Below are positions 11,283 to 43,785 of a DNA stretch of 64,000 bases, piece by piece. Origin of the DNA: an uncultured Verrucomicrobiae bacterium (GTDB lineage Bacteria; Verrucomicrobiota; Verrucomicrobiia; Chthoniobacterales; UBA10450); contig CAWIBO010000002.1 of assembly GCA_963834385.1 (NCBI GenBank), forward strand, positions 32,001 through 96,000, read 5' to 3'. The stretch's first letter is position 1. Each line of letters begins with the position of its first letter. The notes under the pieces were generated by a model. It searched no databases and was not told the origin of the DNA. It saw only the letters and a list, made by a program, of their open reading frames with translations. The position numbers and the translations under genes are program-made.

Positions 11283-13286
11283 TCAGTGACCGTTGCTCTG
11301 CAGGGGCAGAACCACGGTAACCCGCGTGCCGCGCGGGTTGGAGTCGATGTCAACCCGGCCGTTGTGGTCGAAGACAGTCCGTTTCACGATCGGCAGGCCG
11401 AGGCCCATGCCGCGGGCCTTGGTGGTGCAGAAGGGTGAGAAGACCTTTTCCTTCATGTCCGGTGCGATCCCGCGACCATTATCCTGCACGGTCACGGCCA
11501 CGCCGCTGGTCTCATCGCCTTCGCGGATTGGTTTGGCGGCCAGGGTGACCTGCGGTTTCTGCTGCCCGGTGGTGGCCTCGGCCGCGTTGGTCACAAGGTG
11601 GGCAAAGGCCTCGGTCAGGGCGGTTTCATCGCCCATGACGGAGGGGAGATTCTGCGGCAGCGACGTTTCAATGGGCATGCCGTTGCCGGCAAGACGCTGG
11701 CGGGCGAGGTCAACCGCCTTGCGTACGGCCGCGCCAAGGTCCACCGGCTTGATGATCAGCTCGGGCGGGTGGGCGAAGTTGTTGATCTGGGTGATGATCT
11801 TGTCGAGCCGGTCGATCTCCTGCACCACGATCTGGTTGAAATCCTTGCGGAAATCGGCGTCGTCGAACCGCTCGGGCAGGAGCTGGGCGAAGGTCTTGAT
11901 CGCGACGAGCGGGTTGCGGATTTCGTGCGACATGCTGGCCGCGAGATCAGTCCAGAAAGTGGCGCGGTCGAGCAGGTCCTGTTTTTGCCGGAGGCTCTCC
12001 TCCGCGGTGAGATCATGGATGACCGCGACGGCGCCGAGCGGGGTGCGCTGGTCCGAGAGTTTGCGGGTCTCGGCCTGGAGGGATTTCTGGGAATTGCGCT
12101 CGACCCACTGGCGTGGGGGCAGGGTGGACTTGCCATCGAGGGTATCGCGGAGGAACCCGGCCAAAAACGTCCCGAGTGCTTCGACCGGACGATTCAGAAC
12201 GTCGTTGGGGGACAATCCGAGCATTTGCTCCGCGGTCGGGTTAAACCAGCGGACCACGCCGTCCTCGTCGGTGGCGACGATGCCGGGTGGGATCGACTTG
12301 AGCAGCGTTTCGGCGAGCGTTTTCTGGAGGGTGATTTCCTCGTAGAGCAGGGCGTTCTCGAGAACGGTGGAAACGTGCTCGGCCAGGATGGTGAGGCCCT
12401 CGAGGTCGTTGTAATCGAACGGCTGGCCGGTGACGCGATGGCCGAAAAAGAGCCAGCCGATGATGCGGCCCCGGGCGTAAAGGGGGACGATGACCTCGGC
12501 GCCGAAGGTGTCGAGGGCGCGTCGCTGCAGAGCGCGCTGGGAGGGATCGACCGCGTGGGCGAGGTTGGCGCGGCAGATCAGGTGGGCATGGAGCTCGAAC
12601 CAGCGAACGAGCGGGTCGCGCTCGCCGAACTCGATCTCGTAGGTCTCCGGCAGGCAGCGAAGTCCCGCCCGGAGGCGATAGCGGTCGCCCTGACGAATGC
12701 GCGAGAAGATGCCGACCCGCGTGACCGTGGCGGCGTCCGCCACGCTCTCGACCACGCTGGCGAGGAGCGCGTCGACATTGTCGAACCGACGGAAAACGCG
12801 CGGGAAGCGCATGATGGGAAGAGAAGGGCTGCTGAACCGGTCGGGCAACCGCTCGAGGGGGCGGGCAGGCACGGGCACAGGCGCGAGGGTCGATTGCTCG
12901 CGCAGATCGCGATTCTCCTGTTTGACCCGGAGGAAATCAAAAGCGCGACCGACCAGGGCCTGGAACCGGCGGCGGTCGAGCTGGAGATCTTCCACCGCGT
13001 AGATGCCGCTCTGTTCGGCCTCGCGCAGCGGATCGGAGCGGGGCGTGCCGAGCGCCGTGATGAGCACATCGGGCCACTCCTGCTGGACCTGGTCGAGCAG
13101 GTCGCGCGAATCCTTTGCCCGCAGGTCGAGGAGGAGCAGGGCCGGGGTGGTCTGTTGCAGCACGCTGTCCAGGCGGTCGGCGTCGGCCACGTGGCGGATC
13201 TCGGCCACGGAACGCAGGAAAGCCTTCACCCGGCGGGCGAGATCGGCATCCTGAGTATAGAGAACGACCGCGGGAGTGGGGATCAT
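11283..13286 (-). CDS. Cytoplasmic histidine kinase: degenerate REC-like, GAF, PAS, HisKA, HATPase
   Basis: H-box SHEIRNPLVAIKTFAQLLPER, DNGRGI, PFCTTK, GMGLGL; GAF (VIVPLY...FGHRVTGQPF); overlaps the upstream kinase by ATGA. Confidence 0.92.
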   Translation of the reverse strand: MIPTPAVVLYTQDADLARRVKAFLRSVAEIRHVADADRLDSVLQQTTPALLLLDLRAKDSRDLLDQVQQEWPDVLITALGTPRSDPLREAEQSGIYAVEDLQLDRRRFQALVGRAFDFLRVKQENRDLREQSTLAPVPVPARPLERLPDRFSSPSLPIMRFPRVFRRFDNVDALLASVVESVADAATVTRVGIFSRIRQGDRYRLRAGLRCLPETYEIEFGERDPLVRWFELHAHLICRANLAHAVDPSQRALQRRALDTFGAEVIVPLYARGRIIGWLFFGHRVTGQPFDYNDLEGLTILAEHVSTVLENALLYEEITLQKTLAETLLKSIPPGIVATDEDGVVRWFNPTAEQMLGLSPNDVLNRPVEALGTFLAGFLRDTLDGKSTLPPRQWVERNSQKSLQAETRKLSDQRTPLGAVAVIHDLTAEESLRQKQDLLDRATFWTDLAASMSHEIRNPLVAIKTFAQLLPERFDDADFRKDFNQIVVQEIDRLDKIITQINNFAHPPELIIKPVDLGAAVRKAVDLARQRLAGNGMPIETSLPQNLPSVMGDETALTEAFAHLVTNAAEATTGQQKPQVTLAAKPIREGDETSGVAVTVQDNGRGIAPDMKEKVFSPFCTTKARGMGLGLPIVKRTVFDHNGRVDIDSNPRGTRVTVVLPLQSNGH

Positions 13287-15811
13287 GCCGCGGCTACTTC
13301 GCTCTCAAAACGCACCAGCGGAAGAAGAATATGAAAAGCGGTGCCTTTTTTCACCTCGCTCTCGACCTCGATCTGGCCGCCGTGTTCCTGGATGATCCCG
13401 TGCACCACCGAGAGGCCGAGGCCGGTCCCGTAGTCCTTGGTCGTGAAGAACGGGTCAAAAACCTGTCCGATGTCCTCGGGGCGGATCCCCTCGCCGCTGT
13501 CGCGGATGGTGACGCGCAGGATTTCCTGGGTGCTGCCGTTCGTTCGGGAAAGGGCGGAGACGACATGGTCATCGCGGGTGATGCGCGTGCTCACGGCGAG
13601 TTCGCCGCCTGTGCCCATAGCGTCCATGGCGTTGATGAAGAAATTTAGAAAGACCTGCTCCAGCTGGTCAGCGTCGGCGCGGATTGTATCAACTTCCGCC
13701 TGCCATGCCCGCGTTAATTTAATATCTTTTTGGTAGAGGCGATGGCCGACGAGCTGGAGCGATTTCTCGAGCGTCTCGTGGACGTGCATCGGTTTGAGGA
13801 GGGGCTTGGCCGGGCGGGCGAAGCGGAGGAGTTGGTTGACCAGGCTGTCAATGCGGTCGATTTCGTGCCCGATCAGGTTGGAAAAGGTCTCGCGGAAATC
13901 GGAATCCTGGTAACGCTCCGGGAGAAGCTGGGCAAAGGTCTTGATCGAGACGAGGGGGTTCTTGATCTCGTGGGCCATCCCGGCGGAGAGCGTGCCAAGG
14001 CTGGCCAGACGGTCGCTCCGCCGGATCTGCAACTCGAGCTGCTTGAGCGCGGAAATATCGGTCAGCACCAGCAAGGCGCCCAGGGTGGCGCCATCCTCGT
14101 CGCGGAAGATGGAGCTGCTGGCCCGGACAATGCGCGGCCGGCTGCCATCGCCGACGCGCATCTCCGGGTCCTCCTTGCGTTCGCCCGTCTGGAGGGTGGC
14201 GAGGAGCATGCGGCAGAGGTCGGCCGGCAGCCGGTCGATTTCCTGGCCGAGAATGTCAGCGGCGTTCAGCCCGGTGATGAGCTCGGCTTCGTGGTTGAAA
14301 ACGGTGACCTGCTGCTGGGCATCGGCGGCAATGACGCCGGTGGTAAGGTTTTGCAGCAGCGTTTCATTATAAATCTTGGCGTTCTGGACCTCGGTGAAAA
14401 GCTCCGCGTTCTCGATCGCGACGGCGAGCTGTCCGCACAGGACCTGGAGGGCGTTTTGCTCCGGGATCCCGTACATTCGCCCGGAGAGCCGCGGGCCGAG
14501 AACCATGACGCCGGCCAGGTGTTCGCGTGAGGCGATCGGCATGGCGATGGCGACCTGGAGCCCCTCCATCAGGGCGGCCACGCGCCGCAGCTGCGGGGTG
14601 AGACGAATACGACGCAGTTCCTCGAGCACGAGCGGTTCCCGGGTCTCTTCCAGTTGCTGAACGAGCGGGCTCTCCCGGTCGAACTCGAGCAGATCGCGCT
14701 GCAGCTCGTTTTCCGGGAGGGGATACCGCTGGATGAGGCCACCGCGTGCCGGGAGGAGAATGACGACGCGATCTGTCTTCATGGCCTCGGTGACGGTGGC
14801 GCCGAAGCGTTCCATCAGTTCGCGGAGAGTGCTGACCGAGTTGAGGATGGTGGCGGCCTTGCTCACGGTGGCGCCGAAGTCGAGTTGCCGGCTGCCGACG
14901 AAGAGACGGTCTGCCAGGCGCTGGGAAATGCCGCGGGCCGGGGCCATGGCAAAGGCAACGACGAGAGCGGCGACGATGTGGGCCATTTGTGTCCCCCCCG
15001 ATCCGATGAAAGGGACGAGGGCGGTGGTGACCAGCCACCAGACCGCGCCGTAGAGAGTGAGGAGATAAAGGGTGAGCAGGGCGTAGGAGATCACCCGGCG
15101 AAAGAAAACGCCCACTTCCATGATGCGCCGGGTGGTGATGCCGTAGGCGATGATGAGGCTGAACAGAACGATGCGGAAAGGAGCGAGCCAGTTCAGGAGC
15201 GACTGGTGCACAAAAGGCCGGATGAAAAGGGCCAGGAGAGTCAGGCCGAGGATGACGGCCGTGCCCATGAGGATGAAAGAAAGCTCCGTGCGCTCGCGGC
15301 CGCGGGCGTTCTTGATGTCCCGAACGTAAAGCACCAGGAGCGCGAGCCCGGCGGCGGCGAAATAGATGCTGTAGAGGTAGACGCCGTTTCCGTAGACCGG
15401 AACAGGGGTCAGGTTGGGCGCCCCCTGGGCCTGCGAGAAGACCGTGTCGGCCATGAAGAAAGGAGTCTGGCAGAGGAGAACAATGCCGAGGGCGGCGCCC
15501 AGCCAGTAGCGGGTGCCGAAGAGAAGCTCCCGCCAGCTCTGGTTCGGTCTCTTGATCGAGATCCGGAGGAGATTGAAGGAATAGAGAAGGAAGGCGCCGG
15601 CGGCAGAGGCCTGCCTGATGTAGAACTCGGCAGTGGCGAGATTCTCGGTGATCGAGATCAGGTAAAGGCTGCCCAGCCAGACGGCGATGGTGCTGGAGAG
15701 GACGAGGAAGGTCTGATTGGATTTGCGGCCGGGGCTGGCCTGGAAAACCGCGAAGCCCAGCGCGATCTGGATGATCTGGGCGACAAGGATGGGCGTGGTC
15801 GCAGCGTTCAT
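13283..15811 (-). CDS. Multi-TM membrane sensor histidine kinase with GAF and PAS domains
   Basis: About 8-9 N-terminal hydrophobic helices, GAF (IAMPI...LGPRLSGRMY), PAS, H-box AHEIKNPLVSIKTFAQLLPER, DSGEGI, PFFTTK, GTGLGL. Confidence 0.93.
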   Translation of the reverse strand: MNAATTPILVAQIIQIALGFAVFQASPGRKSNQTFLVLSSTIAVWLGSLYLISITENLATAEFYIRQASAAGAFLLYSFNLLRISIKRPNQSWRELLFGTRYWLGAALGIVLLCQTPFFMADTVFSQAQGAPNLTPVPVYGNGVYLYSIYFAAAGLALLVLYVRDIKNARGRERTELSFILMGTAVILGLTLLALFIRPFVHQSLLNWLAPFRIVLFSLIIAYGITTRRIMEVGVFFRRVISYALLTLYLLTLYGAVWWLVTTALVPFIGSGGTQMAHIVAALVVAFAMAPARGISQRLADRLFVGSRQLDFGATVSKAATILNSVSTLRELMERFGATVTEAMKTDRVVILLPARGGLIQRYPLPENELQRDLLEFDRESPLVQQLEETREPLVLEELRRIRLTPQLRRVAALMEGLQVAIAMPIASREHLAGVMVLGPRLSGRMYGIPEQNALQVLCGQLAVAIENAELFTEVQNAKIYNETLLQNLTTGVIAADAQQQVTVFNHEAELITGLNAADILGQEIDRLPADLCRMLLATLQTGERKEDPEMRVGDGSRPRIVRASSSIFRDEDGATLGALLVLTDISALKQLELQIRRSDRLASLGTLSAGMAHEIKNPLVSIKTFAQLLPERYQDSDFRETFSNLIGHEIDRIDSLVNQLLRFARPAKPLLKPMHVHETLEKSLQLVGHRLYQKDIKLTRAWQAEVDTIRADADQLEQVFLNFFINAMDAMGTGGELAVSTRITRDDHVVSALSRTNGSTQEILRVTIRDSGEGIRPEDIGQVFDPFFTTKDYGTGLGLSVVHGIIQEHGGQIEVESEVKKGTAFHILLPLVRFESEVAAA

Positions 15812-15872
15812 CCGGTGCGGCGTGCGGGCTGGGAGGTGGGAAAACGAGGATCGCGCTCCATACCGTCGCGCG

Positions 15873-17114
15873 TCAGGCCGCCGGGCGAAGAATAATCATG
15901 GTCGCGGCGCTGCCCCCGATGCCGCGCACATTGACCAGGGCGCGGTCGATCCGGGTCCTGCGGGGCCGGTTGGCCACAAAGTTCAAATCGCACTTGGGAT
16001 CGGGGTTTTCGTAGTTGGCGGTGGGCGGGATGAGCTGGTCGCGCATGCTCAAGGCGCAGGCGATCAGCTGGAACGGGCCGCCGGCGGCCATGGCATTGCC
16101 GGTCACACCTTTGATTGAATTGACCGGGATATCGTAGGCGCGCGGCCCGAAAACCTCCTTGATGCTGGCGACTTCCGTTTCATCCAGCACCGGATGGCCC
16201 GGTCCGTAGGCGGAAATATAGTCGATCTGGTTGATATCGAGCCCGCCGTTGGCGAGCGCCAGCTTCATGGAATCGGCCAGGCCCGAGCCGGGCCGGCCGG
16301 CATCGCGGTCGCGTTGTTTTCCGTAACAGCAGATCTCAAAATGGATTTGCGCGCCGCGCGCTTCCGCCCGCGCCAGGTTTTCCAGGATCATGACGCCGGC
16401 GCCTTCCGCCAGGACGCCCGAGTCGCGTTCCAGGTCAAAGGGCCGGCTGGCTTTCTCCGGTTCGTCGTTGCGGCAGGAGCTCAGCCCGCTGGCAATGAAC
16501 ATCGACAGGGCCAGGGGCGTGATCGGGGTGTCCGTTCCCCCCGCGATGGCCACCTCTGCCTCGCCGGAGCGGATCATTTCCGCGGCCGTGGCAACGGCAT
16601 CAAGGCCCGATGGGCAGGCGGAGGAAATCGTGGCGGCATCGGCGCTCAGGCCGATCCGGTCGGCGATCATGTTGGCCGCCGCCTGCGGGATCATATGGGC
16701 CGCCGTGCTGGGGGCAGCCCGGTTGGGGCCCTTTTGCTCGACGTCCTCGAAGGCTTTTTCCAGCACATCAATGGCGCTGGAACTCACCCCGATCACCACC
16801 GGCGTCGGGCTGGGAAAATCGAGGTTCTTGGGATCGTAGCCGGCGTTCTCCAAGGCCATCATGGTGGCGGCAAAAGCGAACTGCGTATGCCGGGCCATGC
16901 GTTTCGGTTTCAGCTCGGGCTCGATGAAGTCCTGCGGATCGAAATTTTTCACCTCGCCCGCGATCCGGCTTTTGAACCCGGTGGTGTCAAAGTGGGTGAT
17001 GGGCGCGATGCCGCTGCGGCCGCTGAGAAGGGAATCCCAGAAAGCCTTCAAACCGATGCCATTTGGGGCGACCACGCCCATCCCGGTCACGACGACACGA
17101 TTTTTTTTTCTCAT
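15873..17114 (-). CDS. FabF-like beta-ketoacyl synthase family protein with atypical active site
   Basis: RVVVTGMGVVAPNG, SRIAGEVKNFDP, SSACPSG (Cys kept), SRPFDLERD, EGAG. His motifs are altered (AYGPGH, KGVTGNAMAAGG). Start ATG at 17114. Confidence 0.9.
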   Translation of the reverse strand: MRKKNRVVVTGMGVVAPNGIGLKAFWDSLLSGRSGIAPITHFDTTGFKSRIAGEVKNFDPQDFIEPELKPKRMARHTQFAFAATMMALENAGYDPKNLDFPSPTPVVIGVSSSAIDVLEKAFEDVEQKGPNRAAPSTAAHMIPQAAANMIADRIGLSADAATISSACPSGLDAVATAAEMIRSGEAEVAIAGGTDTPITPLALSMFIASGLSSCRNDEPEKASRPFDLERDSGVLAEGAGVMILENLARAEARGAQIHFEICCYGKQRDRDAGRPGSGLADSMKLALANGGLDINQIDYISAYGPGHPVLDETEVASIKEVFGPRAYDIPVNSIKGVTGNAMAAGGPFQLIACALSMRDQLIPPTANYENPDPKCDLNFVANRPRRTRIDRALVNVRGIGGSAATMIILRPAA

Positions 17115-17253
17115 GGAGTTATCGGTCCCGTTTCTTCTCACAACTGAATGCCCGGGGAGGAAGGTTTTTTAATGGTTATGTAATTTCTGGTAATTTCGGG
17201 AGACTTCTGCGTCGCCCACTGTTATTCACCAAATTTGAGAGTTATTCACAAGT

Positions 17254-17269
17254 TGCATCTTGCGTGCCG
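17254..17269 (-). promoter_or_regulatory. Putative sigma54 (-24/-12) promoter for the ketosynthase-kinase genes
   Basis: Minus strand reads CGGCACGCAAGATGCA: exact GG-N10-GC spacing and close to TGGCACG-N4-TTGC(A/T), inside an AT-rich intergenic region. Confidence 0.6.
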
Positions 17270-17376
17270 GAACAATTTGTTTCACCCTCGGGCCCGCCGC
17301 CACTCCTCGATTTCCGCTCCTCCCGTAAATCGTTCGTTGTCGGGCACAACCTTAGCTCTATCCCTGCCTCGCACCC

Positions 17377-18531
17377 ATGATCGCTTCTCCTGATCTGCCG
17401 CAGGTCCTTGTCATCGACGATGAAATAGGCCCCCGCGAGAGCCTGCGCATGCTTCTCAAGCCCAGTTACCGCGTCCACACCGCCGAATGCGTCGCCGACG
17501 GTGTCCGTCTTCTCCAGGAAAAAAAACCTGATGCCGTCATCACCGATATCCGCATGCCCGGCGTGAGCGGCATCGACGGCCTGCGCCAGATCCGCGAGAT
17601 CGACCCGCATGTCTCGGTCATCATGCTGACCGGGTTCGGCGCCCTGGAAACGGCGCAGGAGGCGCTTCGGCTCGGGGCCAACGATTATATCAGCAAGCCG
17701 TTCGACGCCCGCGAAATGCGCGAGGTCATCAGCCGCAACGTCGAGCGCACCCGGGTGCACCGCGCGGGGGAGAACGCCGCCCTGGAAATCCGCGGATTAA
17801 ACGATCGCCTCCTCAAAGAGCTGGCCCAGAAAGAACGCCTGGCCTCGCTCGGCCAGGCCTCGGCCGAGTTCGTCCACGATATCAGCAACCCGCTCACCAT
17901 CGTCTGGGGTTACGTCCAACTGCTTGCGCGCAAACTCGAGCAGCAGGAGAAAACCGAGGGCGAATCGGCCGCGTCCGCCCGTGAATTAAATATCATCGAA
18001 CAGAATGTCCGTCTCTGCCGCGACCTCCTGGTCATGTGGCAGAGCTACGGCAGCGAGGAAGCGGCGCCGCACAAGCCCATCTCGGTTTCCTCCATTGTTC
18101 GCGACGTCATCAAGGCCATGGAGGGCATGGCGGCGCAGCACAAAGTGACGCTGACCGGGCAGGTCTGCGAGGAACCGGGCAGCCTCCTGGGCGACGCCGT
18201 CCAGGTCCAGCGCGCCATCCAGAACGTGGTCACCAACGCCGTGCAGGCGGCGGCGGAAAGGGATAATGGCGGCACGGTCTCCGTCTCCTGCCAGCAACGG
18301 GAATTTTACACCGACGTGCGCGTGGAAGATTCCGGCACGGGGATGACCCCGGAACAGATCATCAAAATTTTCGATCCTTACTTCACGACCAAGCAGGGCA
18401 AGAGCGGCACCGGCCTCGGCCTCTACATCACGAAGAAGGTGGTCGATGATCATAACGGTTCGATCAAGGTCGACAGCACGCCGGGTGCGGGCAGCGTTTT
18501 TACCATCCGCCTTCCGCTGCTGAACGCCTGA
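17377..18531 (+). CDS. Hybrid response regulator/histidine kinase (REC-HisKA-HATPase)
   Basis: VLVIDDE, TDIRMPG, LTGFG, YISKPF; FVHDISNPL; EDSGTGM, YFTTK, GTGLGL. Confidence 0.93.
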   Translation: MIASPDLPQVLVIDDEIGPRESLRMLLKPSYRVHTAECVADGVRLLQEKKPDAVITDIRMPGVSGIDGLRQIREIDPHVSVIMLTGFGALETAQEALRLGANDYISKPFDAREMREVISRNVERTRVHRAGENAALEIRGLNDRLLKELAQKERLASLGQASAEFVHDISNPLTIVWGYVQLLARKLEQQEKTEGESAASARELNIIEQNVRLCRDLLVMWQSYGSEEAAPHKPISVSSIVRDVIKAMEGMAAQHKVTLTGQVCEEPGSLLGDAVQVQRAIQNVVTNAVQAAAERDNGGTVSVSCQQREFYTDVRVEDSGTGMTPEQIIKIFDPYFTTKQGKSGTGLGLYITKKVVDDHNGSIKVDSTPGAGSVFTIRLPLLNA

Positions 18532-18577: not shown

Positions 18578-21007
18578 GTGCCCGCCGGTTATTGTGTTGC
18601 ACCTGTTTTCGCCCTTCGCACGACCGGTGTCCCGTTTCGGCACGTAGCCGGCCTGGCCACACCGCGGGCCACGGAGATCGCGCGCGCGCTTCTGACCGCC
18701 CGGGCCGAGCAAGCCCGGCTGCGCAAGGAACTGAACGATCTTTTCGGTCGGCAGGAGTTCCGCATGTCGGGCCCGCCCTTCCAGTTGGCGGTGGCCGTCA
18801 TGCGGGGTCGCGCCTTGACCGTGGCTCCCGGCGTGGTGCTGCCTCCGGCCGTGCCGGCACTGGCGGAGATTTCCGCCCGGATTGCGGAACTGGAGAAACA
18901 ATTCGAGCCGGTTTTGCGTGCGGAGGTGGCGCAGGCGCGCATGGCCCTGCGCCGCTCCTGCCGCGACGTTCTCCCCGATTACCTGATTTTCGGCGCGGGC
19001 GATATTCGGCGCGAAGTGGCCGAACTGGGGATCGAGGAAGTCGGCGGCGAGCTTCCCGCCCGCAATTCCAAGGAACGCGCGCGCGAGCGGCACCTCCTTC
19101 TCTATCTGCAGCGTCTCTGCGGCAAGAACGACACTTTCAGCCGGTTCGGTCCGTCAACCTGGGGTCGGCTGGATGAAACGGTCACAGGCGTCCGCTTTGA
19201 ACCGAGTGCCGGCATCGATGAACGTCATCTCCTTCTTGAACGCTGGACGGCCCATCTCCTGGCACGCGCCCTGAACGCTGATCCCGCCGCGCGCCGCCAG
19301 TTTTGTCCGCGGCTCCACCCGAACGGCCGGATCGAGGGGAACGAGTTCGTCTTCATCGAGGACAACCGGCGCGTGCCGCTGTCGCCTGCGCTGCGCGAGC
19401 TGCTCGACCAGTGTGACGGGCAAACGCCGGCGCAGGGGCTGGAGGCCGGGCTGCCACAACTGGAGGAGTTGGTGGACCTCGGTGTTCTTCTTTTGGGAGC
19501 CGAGGTGCCCGCGCTGGAAGCGAACGCTTTTGGCGTGCTGGTGCAGGATATCGCCGCGTGGCCGGCCGGCGAGGTTCGCACCGGCTGGCTCGACCGGGCG
19601 GAACGGCTGGGCCGGCTGCCGGCCGAGTTTGGCGCCAGCACGGCGATTGCGCACCGCGTGACGGTGATGAACGAAGCGCGCCGGCTTCTTGGTGAACTGG
19701 GCGAAACCGAAGCGCTGGGGCAGCGGGCGCTCTACAAGGCGGCCAACCCAATTCTCGAGGAGTGCGCCCGGTTCTCCCAATTCCATCTTGGCGTGGAGGC
19801 GGCGGCCGCGCTCACCCGCGAGGGCCGGCCCTGGCTTGACCTTTGGCGCGACACCTATGCCTTTGTCGCGAGCCGCCTTGCCCAGGCCCTGCGCCATCTC
19901 CACCAGTCGGCGCCCCGGCACGACGGTGCGGTGGCCTGGCCGGCGTTCCTGGCCCATTGCGCGCGGCAGAACATGCCGCTCACCGGTCATGGCCTGGTGG
20001 CCCCGGGGCACGTGGCGTTCCAGGAGGTAAAAGGGGCATTCCGCAGGGCCCTGGAAGAGCGTGCGGGAGAGGCCGAGGTGGAACTCACGGCGGAAGATTG
20101 CGCGATTGTGCGCCGCAGTTTTTCGTTCCCCGCCTTCGACGAATACACTTATCCGTCGGCAGACCTGCAGATTGCGGCGCGCTCCTTCGAGGCCATGGCG
20201 CGGGGCGAATACCAATGGATCATCGCGGAACTGCATCCGGCGGTGGCCCTGCTGCACCACGGGCTTTTTTGGAGCTGCCCGGAGAAGGAGGTGCTGGCCG
20301 GGGCGCTGCGGGCCACCACCTTTGGGCAACCGAGTCCGCATTACGGATTTCACGCGGCCGATTTTACGGCGCACACGACGGTGCACCTGATGGAAGCGCT
20401 GGGAGAACAGAGCGTGTTTGTCGCGCCGCAGCGCGGGCGGCCGGAGTGGAACCCGATCCCGCCCGCGGAGGTGGAGGTGGTGGTGCAGGAGGAGAGCGGC
20501 GACGTGGTCCTGCGCCAGCGCGGCACGGGGCGTCATCTTGGTTCGCTGGCCCGGAACTGGTTGATTCCGCTTGGTTTTCATCCGTTCCATTTCGGGCGGA
20601 CGCCGCACATGCCGCGTTTGCGCTGCGGGAACGTGATCGTGCAGCGCCGTTCCTGGACGGTGAAGCTCGAGGAGCTGGCCCCGGGCAATCATGCCGGCAT
20701 CTCGCCCGCGCTCGTCTCAGCGGTGGAGTCGCTCCGGGCGGAGAAAGGCTGGCCCCGGCACATTTACATTCGGCCGACCGAGCAGGCGCTCCGGCGGAGT
20801 GGAGCGGAGGGGCGCGACAAGGACACCAAGCCGGTCTACGTGGATCTCGAGAGCTACCTTTTCCTGGAAATCTTCCATCGTTGGCTGACGAAGGCGGGCG
20901 AACTGGAAGTGACCGAGATGCTGCCGGACCCCGAACATCTGTGCTGGCAGGAACCGGGTGGAAATCACACCTTTGAGATCCGCACCCTTATTGTGCCGGA
21001 AACATGA
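18578..21007 (+). CDS. Small LanB / PEARL-like (peptide aminoacyl-tRNA ligase-like) protein lacking an elimination domain
   Basis: YLQRLCGKNDTFSRFGP, SADLQI, IAELHP, PRLRCGNVIVQRRSW, KPVYVD, EMLPDPEHL...FEIR; about 810 aa, ends right after the glutamylation-type domain. Confidence 0.82.
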   Translation: MPAGYCVAPVFALRTTGVPFRHVAGLATPRATEIARALLTARAEQARLRKELNDLFGRQEFRMSGPPFQLAVAVMRGRALTVAPGVVLPPAVPALAEISARIAELEKQFEPVLRAEVAQARMALRRSCRDVLPDYLIFGAGDIRREVAELGIEEVGGELPARNSKERARERHLLLYLQRLCGKNDTFSRFGPSTWGRLDETVTGVRFEPSAGIDERHLLLERWTAHLLARALNADPAARRQFCPRLHPNGRIEGNEFVFIEDNRRVPLSPALRELLDQCDGQTPAQGLEAGLPQLEELVDLGVLLLGAEVPALEANAFGVLVQDIAAWPAGEVRTGWLDRAERLGRLPAEFGASTAIAHRVTVMNEARRLLGELGETEALGQRALYKAANPILEECARFSQFHLGVEAAAALTREGRPWLDLWRDTYAFVASRLAQALRHLHQSAPRHDGAVAWPAFLAHCARQNMPLTGHGLVAPGHVAFQEVKGAFRRALEERAGEAEVELTAEDCAIVRRSFSFPAFDEYTYPSADLQIAARSFEAMARGEYQWIIAELHPAVALLHHGLFWSCPEKEVLAGALRATTFGQPSPHYGFHAADFTAHTTVHLMEALGEQSVFVAPQRGRPEWNPIPPAEVEVVVQEESGDVVLRQRGTGRHLGSLARNWLIPLGFHPFHFGRTPHMPRLRCGNVIVQRRSWTVKLEELAPGNHAGISPALVSAVESLRAEKGWPRHIYIRPTEQALRRSGAEGRDKDTKPVYVDLESYLFLEIFHRWLTKAGELEVTEMLPDPEHLCWQEPGGNHTFEIRTLIVPET

Positions 21008-37583: not shown

Positions 37584-40444
<2,861 letters not shown>

Positions 40445-40763
40445 ATCTGTTCCGGTCCCGGCTTTCGCCAGAACCAGAGATTTTTTATGATAACTGAAAC
40501 TCTCACGGGCCAGGGATCTTACCCCCCGGCCGTTTATTTCAGACTCAGCTCTTCAAAGTTGTACTTACTTACTACCCTGTATGTAGATATCAAAGAACCA
40601 GCGGTCCCAGCACCATTTCAGCCCACAAAAAAACCCAACCCTGTCTTCCGACTCAAAAACGTTTCCGTTCAACAGCCGGGACAAAATTGAGTTCCAATTT
40701 GCAGTCCCAAAATGTGCAAGAACCACCCCGGCTTTGCCGAGGCCCGCTTTCGGCGGGACGAAG

Positions 40764-40791
40764 AAAATAACCCGCCCCGCCTTTCCGTCAA
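40764..40791 (-). promoter_or_regulatory. Putative sigma70 promoter for the 23S-5S unit
   Basis: Minus strand TTGACG-N16-TATTTT, about 320 bp upstream of the 23S 5' end. Confidence 0.55.
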
Positions 40792-40940
40792 CGCCGGAAA
40801 TGAAGATTTTTCGAAAAATCTCTCCCGGCCGAAGCCTCCGGGAGGAAGCACTTTAGGTTGCCCCCCTCCCCGAACAAGCCCGGCCACCCCAAAAAAAGTT
40901 AAGAGGACTGCCCAGGCCGCCGGCGCCGTATTCCCTCTGT

Positions 40941-41801
40941 ATGGGACGGAAGAAAAAGCAGCGCCCCCGCCAGGAGCAATCGCAGCAGCCCGGTCGCGAA
41001 CACCTCATGAAGCCTCGGCCCAGGGCCGATGACCCCGGCTATCGCGGCAGCGGCAAGTTAAAGGACAAGGTCGCGCTGATCACCGGCGGCGACAGCGGCA
41101 TCGGCCGCGCCGTGGCCCTCTTTTTCGCCCGGGAAGGGGCCGACATCTCCATCGTCTACCTGGAGGAGAAAAAGGACGCGAAGGAGACCCGGCGCCTGGT
41201 GGAAAAGGAGGGACGCCGCTGCCTCCTCCTCGCCGGCGACATCGGCAGCGAAAAGTTCTGCCGGCGAGCGGTCGAGCGGACGGTTTCCCGGCTGGGCGGA
41301 CTCAATATCCTGGTGAACAACGCCGCCGAGCAGCACCCGAAGGAGAGCATCGAGGAAATCAGCGCCAAACAGCTCGAGCGAACCTTTCGCACCAACCTCT
41401 TTTCCTTCTTTTACCTGACCAAGGCGGCCCTGCCGCACCTCGGGAAAGGCGACTCGGTGATCAACACCACCTCGGTCACGGCCTACAAAGGGAGCGACCA
41501 TCTGCTCGATTATTCCTCGACCAAGGGCGCCATCGTCGCCTTCACCCGCTCCTTCTCCCAGGCCGTGGTCGACCGCGGCATCCGGGTCAACGGGGTGGCC
41601 CCGGGCCCGATCTGGACCCCGCTCATCCCCTCCACCTTCCCGGGCGAACGCGTGGAGACATTCGGCTCCGACGTGCCGATGAAGCGGGCCGGGCAGCCCG
41701 AGGAGATTGCGCCCTGCTACGTTTTCCTGGCCTCGGACGACAGTTCCTACATGACCGGGCAGATTCTTCATCCGAACGGCGGCACGATCGTGAACGGCTG
41801 A
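40941..41801 (+). CDS. SDR family oxidoreductase (YghA/YhxC stress-protein type)
   Basis: YRGSGKL, TGGDSGIG, NNAAEQ, YSSTKG, APGPIWTPLIP. Confidence 0.93.
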   Translation: MGRKKKQRPRQEQSQQPGREHLMKPRPRADDPGYRGSGKLKDKVALITGGDSGIGRAVALFFAREGADISIVYLEEKKDAKETRRLVEKEGRRCLLLAGDIGSEKFCRRAVERTVSRLGGLNILVNNAAEQHPKESIEEISAKQLERTFRTNLFSFFYLTKAALPHLGKGDSVINTTSVTAYKGSDHLLDYSSTKGAIVAFTRSFSQAVVDRGIRVNGVAPGPIWTPLIPSTFPGERVETFGSDVPMKRAGQPEEIAPCYVFLASDDSSYMTGQILHPNGGTIVNG

Positions 41802-41835
41802 CCCGGCGGACCGGAACCGCGGAAACAGGCAGGTC

Positions 41836-43785
41836 TCAGCCGAGGGGCAGACCGTCGCGGATGACGGCCGGTTTCTGACCGTTCAGCGAGAGATAGGTGT
41901 AACCCTGCAGGCCGCGCTCGTAATCGGCCAGGAGTTTCATGGCCTCGTTCGGTTTCATGCGGTCGCTCTTGATGGCCGCATCCACCTGCGCCTTGACCAG
42001 GCGGAGCAGTTCCACCTTGTCCCACTGGGTCAGGGCAAGGACATCGCCGATGGTGCTGCCCTCGATCACCTCCTCGATGTACCAGCCCGATTCCTCGTCC
42101 TCATCGAGAAAGACGTGCACCTCGTTGACGCGGCCGAAGAGGTTGTGCAGGTCGCCCATGATGTCCTGGTAGGCGCCGATCAGGAAGACGCCGAGGTAGT
42201 ACGGCTCGCCCGGGGCGATGGCGTGCAGCGGAAGCGTTTCCTTCACGTCCTGCAGGTCGATGAACTTCGAGATCTTGCCGTCGGAATCGCAGGTGATGTC
42301 GACGATGGTGGCGTTGCGGCTGGGGGGCTCGGTCAGCCGATGAATGGGCATGATCGGAAAGAGCTGTCCGAGGGCCCAGTGGTCGAGGAGCGACTGGAAG
42401 ACGGAGAAATTGCAGATGTACTGGTCCCCGAGGGCGGTCTCCAGTTCCTTCACTTCGTCCGGGACATAACGCAGTCCCTTGTGCATCCCGACGATCTGCT
42501 CCGCCAGCTGCCAGTAAACGCGGTCGATCTTGGCCTTGCTCTCCAGCTCGAGCAGGCCGAGCTCGAACATCTGTTGTGATTCCTCCCGGATTTGCTGCGC
42601 GTCGTGCAGCATTTCGCGGCGGTTATTGCGCCGCAGCTTGGCCTGCACCTCCATGATGTCGCCTACGAGTTTGTGGTCGGCCTCGGCCGGCTCCACTTTA
42701 TCCTTGAGCACTTTCTCGATGGAGCCAAAGGCCTCGACCACCAGCACCGAGTGGTGGGCCACGATGGCGCGTCCGCTTTCGCTGATGATGACGGGGTGGG
42801 GCACCTTCTCGGAGTCGCAGACGTCGGCAATGTTCCAGACGACGTCGCTGGCGTATTCCTGGAGGGAGTAGTTGGTGGAGCAGTCGAAGGTGGTGCGCGA
42901 ACCGTCGTAATCGACCCCGAGACCGCCGCCGACGTCGAGATAACCGAGCTCGTGTCCCATCTTCACCAGCTTGGCGTAGTAACGGGCGGCCTCGCGCACG
43001 GCGCGCTTGATCGTGGAAATGTCGGGCACCTGCGAGCCGACGTGGAAGTGGACCAGCTTGAGACAATGGGCGTAGCCCTCGCGCTTGAGCATCTCGCTCG
43101 CGGCCACCAGGCTGGCGGTGTCGAGGCCGAACTTCGCGTTCTCGCCGCCGCTGAGCGACCATTTCCCGTCGCCCTTGGTTTGCAGACGGACGCGGATGCC
43201 GATGTAGGGCTCGACTCCGGTTTCGCGGCCGATGCGGATGCACTGCTCAAGTTCCTCGAGCTTTTCCACCACGATGATGACCGACTTGCCGAGGCGACGG
43301 CCGAGGAGCGCGCTGCGGATGAAGGCGCCGTCCTTGTAGCCGTTGCAGACGATGAGGCTTTCCGGGTCGCGATGCATGGCGAGGGCGGCGATGAGCTCCG
43401 GTTTGCTCCCGACCTCGAGGCCGAAATGGAATTCCAGGCCGGCATCGACGATTTCCTCCACGACTTCGCGGAGCTGGTTGACCTTGATCGGGAAGACCCC
43501 GCGGTAATGGCTGCGGTACTTGAACTCGGCGATGGCCGCCTGGAAGGCCTTGTTGACCGACTGGACCCGGTGGCGGAGCAGATCCTGGAAACGGACAACG
43601 AGCGGAAAGCCGAGGCCGCGTTCGCGGGCTTCCTGCACGACCTCGAGGAGATCGATGGAACCGCCGGCCTGCTGGAGCGGACGCGCGATGACGTTGCCCT
43701 TGCGGTTGATGCTGAAGTACTCGCCACCCCAGCCTTCCACGTTGTAGGCGGCGGACGCGGCCTCAACGTCCCATTCGTTCTTCAT
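41836..43785 (-). CDS. speA: Biosynthetic arginine decarboxylase
   Basis: FPIKVNQ (PLP lysine), EVGSKPEL, CNGYKD, HFHVGSQ, DVGGGLG, ESGRA, DITCDSDG, GAYQDIMGDLHNLFG. Confidence 0.97.
   Translation of the reverse strand: MKNEWDVEAASAAYNVEGWGGEYFSINRKGNVIARPLQQAGGSIDLLEVVQEARERGLGFPLVVRFQDLLRHRVQSVNKAFQAAIAEFKYRSHYRGVFPIKVNQLREVVEEIVDAGLEFHFGLEVGSKPELIAALAMHRDPESLIVCNGYKDGAFIRSALLGRRLGKSVIIVVEKLEELEQCIRIGRETGVEPYIGIRVRLQTKGDGKWSLSGGENAKFGLDTASLVAASEMLKREGYAHCLKLVHFHVGSQVPDISTIKRAVREAARYYAKLVKMGHELGYLDVGGGLGVDYDGSRTTFDCSTNYSLQEYASDVVWNIADVCDSEKVPHPVIISESGRAIVAHHSVLVVEAFGSIEKVLKDKVEPAEADHKLVGDIMEVQAKLRRNNRREMLHDAQQIREESQQMFELGLLELESKAKIDRVYWQLAEQIVGMHKGLRYVPDEVKELETALGDQYICNFSVFQSLLDHWALGQLFPIMPIHRLTEPPSRNATIVDITCDSDGKISKFIDLQDVKETLPLHAIAPGEPYYLGVFLIGAYQDIMGDLHNLFGRVNEVHVFLDEDEESGWYIEEVIEGSTIGDVLALTQWDKVELLRLVKAQVDAAIKSDRMKPNEAMKLLADYERGLQGYTYLSLNGQKPAVIRDGLPLG

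Follow-up and report, generated by a model that had tools for sequence, protein, structure and literature searches.

We analysed a window of 64,000 nucleotides of DNA from an uncultured Verrucomicrobiae bacterium (GTDB lineage Verrucomicrobiota; Verrucomicrobiia; Chthoniobacterales; UBA10450; assembly GCA_963834385.1, contig CAWIBO010000002.1, positions 32,001 to 96,000). In this window, the gene for a ketosynthase (KS) of the FabF fold leads two histidine kinase genes, HK1 and HK2, and a hybrid kinase gene, REC-HK, is divergent from it (Table 1). Our main result is that KS and the seven-transmembrane (7TM) sensor domain of HK1 are inherited as one block in three Verrucomicrobiota lineages. 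A first-pass annotation of the same DNA had described this gene layout, including the ATGA overlap of HK1 and HK2, and our open reading frames and Pfam domains agree with it. KS and HK1 are separated by 61 bp, and the H-box His and the N and G boxes are retained in HK1, HK2 and REC-HK. The annotation had also reported no acyl carrier protein (ACP), FabD or FabG gene nearby; indeed, these families had no match among the 10 proteins between 6.8 and 21.8 kb that our family scan covered, and the only match to the ACP motif anywhere in the genome lies on a different contig (C1). Close homologues carry database names that likewise point to Chthoniobacterales, Verrucomicrobiota.

The REC-like domain assigned to HK2 by the annotation has no Pfam REC match in the window, but a distant orthologue matches (E 2.6e-8) and Asp54 is invariant (30/30). 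The third-family counterpart of HK2 at L221:4416-6257 (-) has no Pfam match and keeps an H-box-like motif, and is possibly a degenerate kinase. Downstream (3') of REC-HK, between it and ParA, lies a LanB-N-like gene that overlaps ParA by ATGA, is kept throughout the family and is absent from the distant cassettes described below; judging by its sequence, its product is a possible accessory enzyme of the circuit. The annotation mentioned neither this gene nor the loss of both catalytic histidines from KS. Elsewhere in the window, G+C content falls to 0.52-0.59 at positions 38000-42000, against about 0.64 in the rest, and this segment was possibly acquired.

Table 1. Features of the ketosynthase-kinase locus, by position in the window
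Feature	Position	Strand	Description
KS, FabF-fold ketosynthase	15873-17114	-	413 aa from ATG; Pfam ketoacyl-synt
HK1, membrane kinase, predicted receptor	13283-15811	-	842 aa; 7TM, two further helices, GAF, PAS, HisKA, HATPase
HK1 residues 1-228, HisKA_7TM sensor domain	15128-15811	-	Predicted seven-helix fold like that of G-protein-coupled receptors (GPCRs); the part co-inherited with KS
HK2, cytoplasmic kinase	11283-13286	-	667 aa; atypical REC-like domain, GAF, PAS, HisKA, HATPase
REC-HK, REC-HisKA-HATPase hybrid	17377-18531	+	384 aa; divergent from KS; in the cassette of all three lineages
LanB N-terminal-domain-only protein	18578-21007	+	Pfam Lant_dehydr_N; possible accessory enzyme
Sigma54-type -24/-12 site facing KS	17254-17269	-	GG-N10-GC; pattern search
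Weaker sigma54-type site facing REC-HK	17342-17357	+	Pattern search

Ketosynthase and sensor domain are inherited as one block

The KS clade was present in 19 of the 24 other family genomes and absent from all 16 genomes that represented other families in the order; across the family, it occurs in 118 of 151 genomes and 27 of 28 genera. These family tallies, like most of the tree tests below, include the unpublished genomes G007 and G002. Genus g10 shows a clean apparent loss within the family, KS being absent from all 18 genomes searched. The cassette normally occurs once per family genome, at a fixed site, and KS shares its locus with the HK1 membrane region in 62 out of 62 family loci. We rejected family-level synteny alone as proof of linkage because the neighbourhood is syntenic as a whole, FBA, LpxD and ParA included, and we therefore turned to distant lineages.

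When 401 genomes of the phylum were searched with a profile, other classes contributed 39 loci, from 37 genomes, as a second tier; one related protein cluster bears the name Kiritimatiellia. In all 39 of these distant loci, HK1 comes directly after KS; 35 also carry REC-HK and 34 a FadL/TodX outer-membrane channel, of whose five misses four lie at contig ends and one is real. FBA, ParA and LanB-N are absent from the distant loci. Searching with the HK1 sensor region produced matches in 61 of the 401 genomes and revealed a third family, which has KS in 20 of 61 genomes; a 7TM kinase comes next after KS in 26 out of its 27 loci, the single miss being at a contig end. The same search gave two further families (L211 and L212). 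Conservation of the KS-kinase neighbourhood, for which the first-pass annotation had called, thus holds in three lineages. LuxR was not among the annotated conserved neighbours.

Other searches were less productive. A single-protein scan of genome contigs found just two clade members among 43 loci, most of what a metagenome scan returned was short contigs and ordinary FabF, and in 201 genomes from the phylum to which an Omnitrophota locus belongs, the best 30 matches, which were inspected, were all canonical FabF, with no KS clade member among them. Four genomes appear to hold two different KS copies, namely G004 (L032 and L039), G717, G272 (L115 and L151) and G148 (L117 and L152); the second copies are on short contigs and L151 equals L152 in protein, so that binning errors are possible.

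With the background removed, distances between KS sequences correlated with those between HK1 membrane domains (partial r 0.58, p 0.001, n=14; 0.40, n=30), and the membrane domain was uncorrelated with the kinase core of the same protein (-0.02; 0.03). For the membrane alignment, the KS tree was 282 log units better than the kinase-core tree (approximately unbiased test, p 1.7e-16, n=22); the alignment also rejected the KS tree when compared with its own tree. The HK2 N terminus had the reverse preference, for the kinase-core tree over the KS tree. In both lineages (n=17 and 32), HK1 windows 10-250 preferred the KS tree and the reference tree was the better fit for windows 251-832, placing the switch at about residue 250, with a weaker per-window signal in the distant lineage. 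The reference tree was also preferred by REC-HK, LanB-N, ParA, FBA, LpxD, FadL, the sigma54 activator and the FAD (flavin adenine dinucleotide) oxidase. The result held against a housekeeping tree including the unlinked FabF (+233 versus -119, n=15), and the third family (+124 versus -250, n=26 of 27) and the family loci taken as one pool (+585 versus -1431, n=56 and 55 of 62) showed the same pattern. Leaving G007 and G002 out of the key tree test gave +268 versus -318. Coverage filters dropped loci with frameshifts or contig ends, and L041 and L381 are apparently the same genome.

The block is directly visible among six close relatives in genus g17, in which KS and 7TM form three matched pairs. 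Within pairs, KS is 88-94% and 7TM 73% identical; between pairs, the values are 68-76% and 39-58%. HK2 of the same genomes is 82-96% identical and groups differently from KS and 7TM. For L352 and L354, for example, HK2 is 96% and REC-HK 94% identical, but KS only 75% and 7TM 39%. We also considered LanB-N as a co-swapped partner and rejected it on its tree tests (-127, and a non-significant -18), its distance correlation being r 0.34 (p 0.008); the third-family nucleotidyltransferase favoured neither tree (+5).

One account of this pattern makes KS an output of the kinases, an acyltransferase acting on an envelope lipid or peptide, with 7TM hitch-hiking between conserved recombination anchors. 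That the switch point falls directly after the conserved motif ending helix 7, that some KS and 7TM types are mismatched, and that intact ketosynthases fused to PilZ, REC or PocR-GGDEF domains show such an enzyme can be a regulated output would all agree with it. However, in no test did the gene flanking KS on its other side (REC-HK or FadL) follow the KS tree, the switch is near the domain border in three lineages, and no part measured evolves faster than 7TM (45% mean identity), and we regard this account as highly unlikely.

An active site without the histidine pair, next to a variable sensor

To examine the KS active site, we used FabF numbering derived from motif alignment to Thermus FabF and from published residue descriptions (PMC7138838, 10.1101/2021.02.13.431092). 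The window KS retains Cys167, and both catalytic histidines are replaced, by Tyr303 and Asn340; it also has Arg397 and Gly233. The latter replaces what we take to be a malonyl-pocket Phe of FabF. The Cys-Tyr-Asn combination, in which the His of HGTST became Tyr303 and that of GHLLG became Asn340, was present in 142 out of 142 close homologues, and in all 62 family loci. Across the three lineage sets, Cys is invariant and position 340 is mostly Asn; position 303 is Tyr in 62/62 family loci, His in 35/39 distant loci and Trp in 26/27 third-family loci. Arg397 is likewise found in 62/62 family loci, and distant members mostly have His there. The NSFGFGG motif of FabF reads NVRGIGG in the window KS and NVRG[LIM]GG across the family, so that in all 62 loci the GFGG gate with Phe400 has become G-[LIM]-GG and the Phe just before it is replaced by Arg. 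Thr305 and Thr307 are changed to Pro and His, loop 2 is shortened, and Ile or Leu occupies the Phe400 gate. By contrast, Asp269 (the equivalent of FabF Asp265) is retained in 62/62 family loci, and KS keeps Lys335 and the equivalent of Asn396.

According to the published descriptions, the two histidines of FabF act in decarboxylation, and His340 is essential for condensation (PMC7138838, 10.1101/2021.02.13.431092). Asp265 and Phe400 are described as important for acyl transfer (PMC7138838, 10.1101/2021.02.13.431092): mutation of Asp265 lowers transacylation 200-300-fold, and losses at Thr305/Thr307, loop 2 and the Phe400 gate reduce it (10.1101/2021.02.13.431092). Since Cys is the only one of these catalytic residues common to all KS members, ordinary decarboxylative elongation with malonyl-ACP is unlikely. 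The invariance of the replacements points to a new function rather than decay.

KS is nevertheless close to FabF in fold. Its structure model (predicted local distance difference test score, pLDDT, 76.9) has the thiolase/KAS II fold (Foldseek template-modelling score 0.86 to 4LS8), and its best sequence, structure and database names are all FabF (PDB 1J3N and 4LS8). These matches are what would be expected if KS were an ordinary second FabF that had come to lie beside kinases by chance. We find this explanation scarcely credible, because the FabF/KAS II class is defined by a Cys-His-His triad (10.1101/2021.02.13.431092) that KS lacks, and a canonical Cys-His-His FabF is encoded at C2:612349, on the same contig as KS. 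Other intact ketosynthase genes are present in the genome, and housekeeping FabF orthologues (74-80% identity) were found in 20 out of 20 relatives examined. KS is therefore not the only fabF of the genome, and we rejected a housekeeping FabF identity for it. Indeed, KS scores 371.2 bits on TIGR03150 (fabF), below the curated cut-off of 493.75, and lies outside any fab cluster. A ketosynthase phylogeny including housekeeping FabF, as the first-pass annotation had proposed, has a modestly supported branch (Shimodaira-Hasegawa-like value 87) that separates 91 of the 92 kinase-linked rows (263 rows in total) from Cys-His-His FabF.

Variation within KS is concentrated at residues 121-150, where column identity is 0.30-0.51, compared with 0.75-0.94 in FabF; this stretch presumably lines the acyl pocket. 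Active-site variants also occur. Four loci (L131, L134, L146 and L147) form a Cys-Asn-His subgroup, with Asn at 303, His at 340 and Arg at 335, in the same cassette, and L155 (G437) and L177 have Gln at the second histidine position, L155 adjoining a kinase match. Nine further proteins (P0174, P0194, P0200, P0212, P0237, P0238, P0249, P0253 and P0258) are Cys-His-His FabF-type ketosynthases behind signalling domains (PilZ, REC, PocR or PocR-GGDEF), an arrangement that suggests signal-controlled output.

Residues 1-310 of HK1 belong to HisKA_7TM (PF16927; Atlas 0.96), the family with an N-terminal seven-helix domain ahead of a histidine kinase. PF16927 matched 16 of 27 HK1 orthologues; the window HK1 was unmatched in that scan and matched in another. 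The HK1 model (pLDDT 85.5) places seven helices in residues 3-226, with a hairpin between helices 4 and 5, then two more long helices and the GAF domain. Residues 1-228 can be superposed on the membrane domains of GPCRs (GABA-B receptor, Z 16.7, root-mean-square deviation 3.4, 222 residues aligned), which in a model speaks for the fold and not for the function. A periplasmic N terminus is supported by 15 Lys/Arg in inner-loop stretches versus 1 in outer ones. On this topology, the outer helix halves vary more than the inner halves (0.39 vs 0.53, p 1.7e-4). A PDB profile search with residues 1-470 matched only the GAF part, and a plasmid search with the same residues found no match. In both KS (residues 121-150) and the sensor (outer helix halves), the variation therefore lies where signal specificity would be expected to reside.

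This distribution of variation bears on another explanation, in which KS is a cytoplasmic co-sensor that holds an acyl group on Cys167, taken from acyl-ACP or from imported fatty acids, and controls HK1 by contact, releasing no signal and co-evolving with HK1 through a protein interface. Loss of both histidines and of parts of the malonyl/pantetheine site would suit such a protein, FadL belongs to a fatty-acid import family, and co-evolution is also expected of direct partners. In 7TM, though, the periplasmic side varies more than the cytoplasmic side, the KS tree does not fit the GAF, PAS and HK2 domains in the cytoplasm, and typed variation among close relatives is unexpected of a metabolic sensor. 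We consider a contact co-sensor unlikely.

A candidate lipid-signal circuit

KS, which lacks both histidines and is inherited as a block with a sensor domain, is likely to be the maker of a lipid-derived cell-to-cell signal. We regard it as fairly probable that KS makes a small lipid-derived signal and that the 7TM domain of the adjacent kinase reads it, the two forming a synthase-receptor pair. The first-pass annotation had reached a similar idea of a synthase and its membrane receptor; co-inheritance of KS with 7TM alone supports it, and the coupling is imperfect in two genera (see below). From the data above, we infer the catalysis, product, ligand binding and order of phosphotransfer as follows. 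Cys167 would take an acyl chain from an acyl-ACP of the ordinary fatty-acid pathway. Because both histidines are gone, malonyl-ACP would not be the acceptor; the chain would most likely be joined to a second, beta-ketoacyl chain, in a two-chain condensation as in PpyS/DarB, or, less likely, pass to an amine or alcohol. The hydrophobic product would reach the periplasm, with FadL, where present, carrying it across the outer membrane, and 7TM would bind the signal from the periplasmic side. FadL takes up long-chain N-acyl homoserine lactone signals in Sinorhizobium, according to PMC9938287. Phosphate would then move from HK1 to HK2, to the REC-HK hybrid and on to a sigma54 activator, encoded in many distant cassettes and in trans here, which would feed back on the sigma54-type promoters. 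Exchange of the KS/7TM block between relatives would likely give strain-specific signal types.

The promoter evidence for the last step is uneven. The sigma54-type promoter that the first-pass annotation had placed upstream exists as a site facing KS with 10 of 12 consensus letters (equalled in 2 of 100 shuffles). By a family pattern drawn up after the data were seen, however, only 8 of 56 family intergenic regions have a site facing KS, and 33 of the 56 have one facing REC-HK (0.4% in shuffles); the window's own site in the latter direction is a weaker match than this stricter form. A search for sigma70 promoters found none, and terminators were at chance level. The predicted activator encoded elsewhere is consistent with the window's genome, where none of five full-length candidates is at the locus; in 15 of 39 distant loci, however, a sigma54 activator lies inside the cassette, and a short REC-HTH gene is present in some others.

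The closest functional parallels differ in the parts used. In Vibrio, the LuxM-LuxN and CqsA-CqsS pairs, which signal to LuxO, place a synthase beside a multi-helix membrane kinase with a lipid-like ligand and a sigma54 activator at the end. Our locus would share the synthase-kinase neighbourhood, the lipid-like ligand and the sigma54 end point, and its predicted synthase is of another family. LuxN matched the HK1 membrane region only weakly (1/27 members, E 0.006); among the matches listed, from five genomes, none was at LuxN positions below 423. In agr and comQXP systems, the N-terminal sensor part of the receptor varies with the signal-making gene. In comQXP, comQ is polymorphic, is incongruent with gyrA and defines groups (PMC4408185). 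At our loci, too, synthase and sensor domain vary together and are incongruent with flanking and housekeeping genes, a resemblance that by analogy supports the synthase-receptor reading; those systems use Gram-positive peptide signals, whereas ours combines a lipid-type enzyme with a 7TM sensor of predicted GPCR-like fold and a proposed sigma54 output.

The first-pass annotation had likened KS to the Photorhabdus ketosynthases of the PpyS-PluR and DarABC-PauR systems, and the comparison survives at the level of function only: a stand-alone ketosynthase working on fatty-acid intermediates to make a proposed signal. PpyS is described as a Cys-His-Asn enzyme, modelled on OleA, that uses Glu105, and a second beta-ketoacyl chain as its acceptor is a published proposal (PMC4578411). 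Most distant KS members share this triad, and the window KS is Cys-Tyr-Asn. KS is of FabF type, scoring 28.1 bits on the StlD/DarB model against a cut-off of 450, and the description of PpyS sets it apart. The receptors of the PpyS and DarABC systems are described as LuxR solos (PMC7154725), whereas the co-inherited partner here is a 7TM membrane kinase with a multi-kinase relay. The locus is thus no PpyS/DarB-LuxR system. Our search of the literature, which also took in the receptor family, found no description of this system in its coverage, outside which most subscription journals lie.

Several accessory genes accompany the cassettes. FAD oxidase genes are directly upstream of KS in L228, L232 and L234, in L224 the two kinase genes are split by an insertion of a carbamoyltransferase gene and a GDSL-like gene, and four distant loci have a FeeM-like N-acyl amino acid synthase-aminotransferase fusion near the cassette (L144:15627-17249 (+)). 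Under the synthase-receptor reading, the FAD oxidase, methyltransferase, adenylyltransferase-like and carbamoyltransferase genes may weakly hint at a hydroxylated product. Such genes can be read differently: KS may convert or detoxify a lipid-like compound from outside, the product of other organisms, with 7TM sensing the same compound and inducing the cassette, so that both change together as the environmental ligand changes. The adenylyltransferase-like (streptomycin-adenylyltransferase-like) gene, present at two different positions in 25 of 27 third-family cassettes, and the FAD oxidase of 15 of 39 distant loci could encode inactivating enzymes, FadL could serve in uptake, and receptors without KS exist. 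We judge this distinctly unlikely, as one cassette per genome at a fixed site (118/151) is unlike the scattered paralogues typical of catabolic modules, and no catabolic pathway is linked.

Further observations weigh against a synthase-receptor pair. In genus g6, the HK2 tree fits 7TM better (-20.2, Kishino-Hasegawa 0.016, n=8), and g264 shows no significant preference (+18.1, n=12). In a six-genome subgroup, the KS tree is the better fit for the remainder of HK1 as well (+47.7). L380 and L382 have KS 97% identical and 7TM only 66%, implying that the receptor can change alone, and in L030/L352 and L374, KS is of one type and 7TM closer to another. KS and 7TM lie side by side, so that recombination at conserved anchors might have carried them along together for other reasons, and most of our tree tests rest on fast maximum-likelihood trees of related genomes. 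L213 (G089) and L215 (G322) carry the receptor kinase without KS at the locus, and are candidate signal-blind or eavesdropping arrangements; three other such loci end at a contig edge. The window's genome (89.6% complete) had no FadL match. Finally, given the loss of Thr305/Thr307, the short loop 2 and the Ile/Leu at the Phe400 gate, KS may be a poor catalyst.

Taking these results together, we hold as evenly balanced the wider proposal of a quorum-sensing family, new to science, across Verrucomicrobiota: an enzyme of FabF fold without the histidine pair would make the lipid signal, a GPCR-like kinase would read it, and a swapped block would set the dialect, much as in agr but based on fatty acids and in Gram-negative bacteria of soil and water. 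If true, this would bring cell-to-cell signalling to a widespread, mostly uncultured bacterial family and, within the phylum, to two lineages besides. HisKA_7TM sensors, with their GPCR-resembling fold, would gain a first ligand class, and ketosynthases a new chemistry that does without the histidine pair. Close relatives offer naturally matched and mismatched types of enzyme and sensor.

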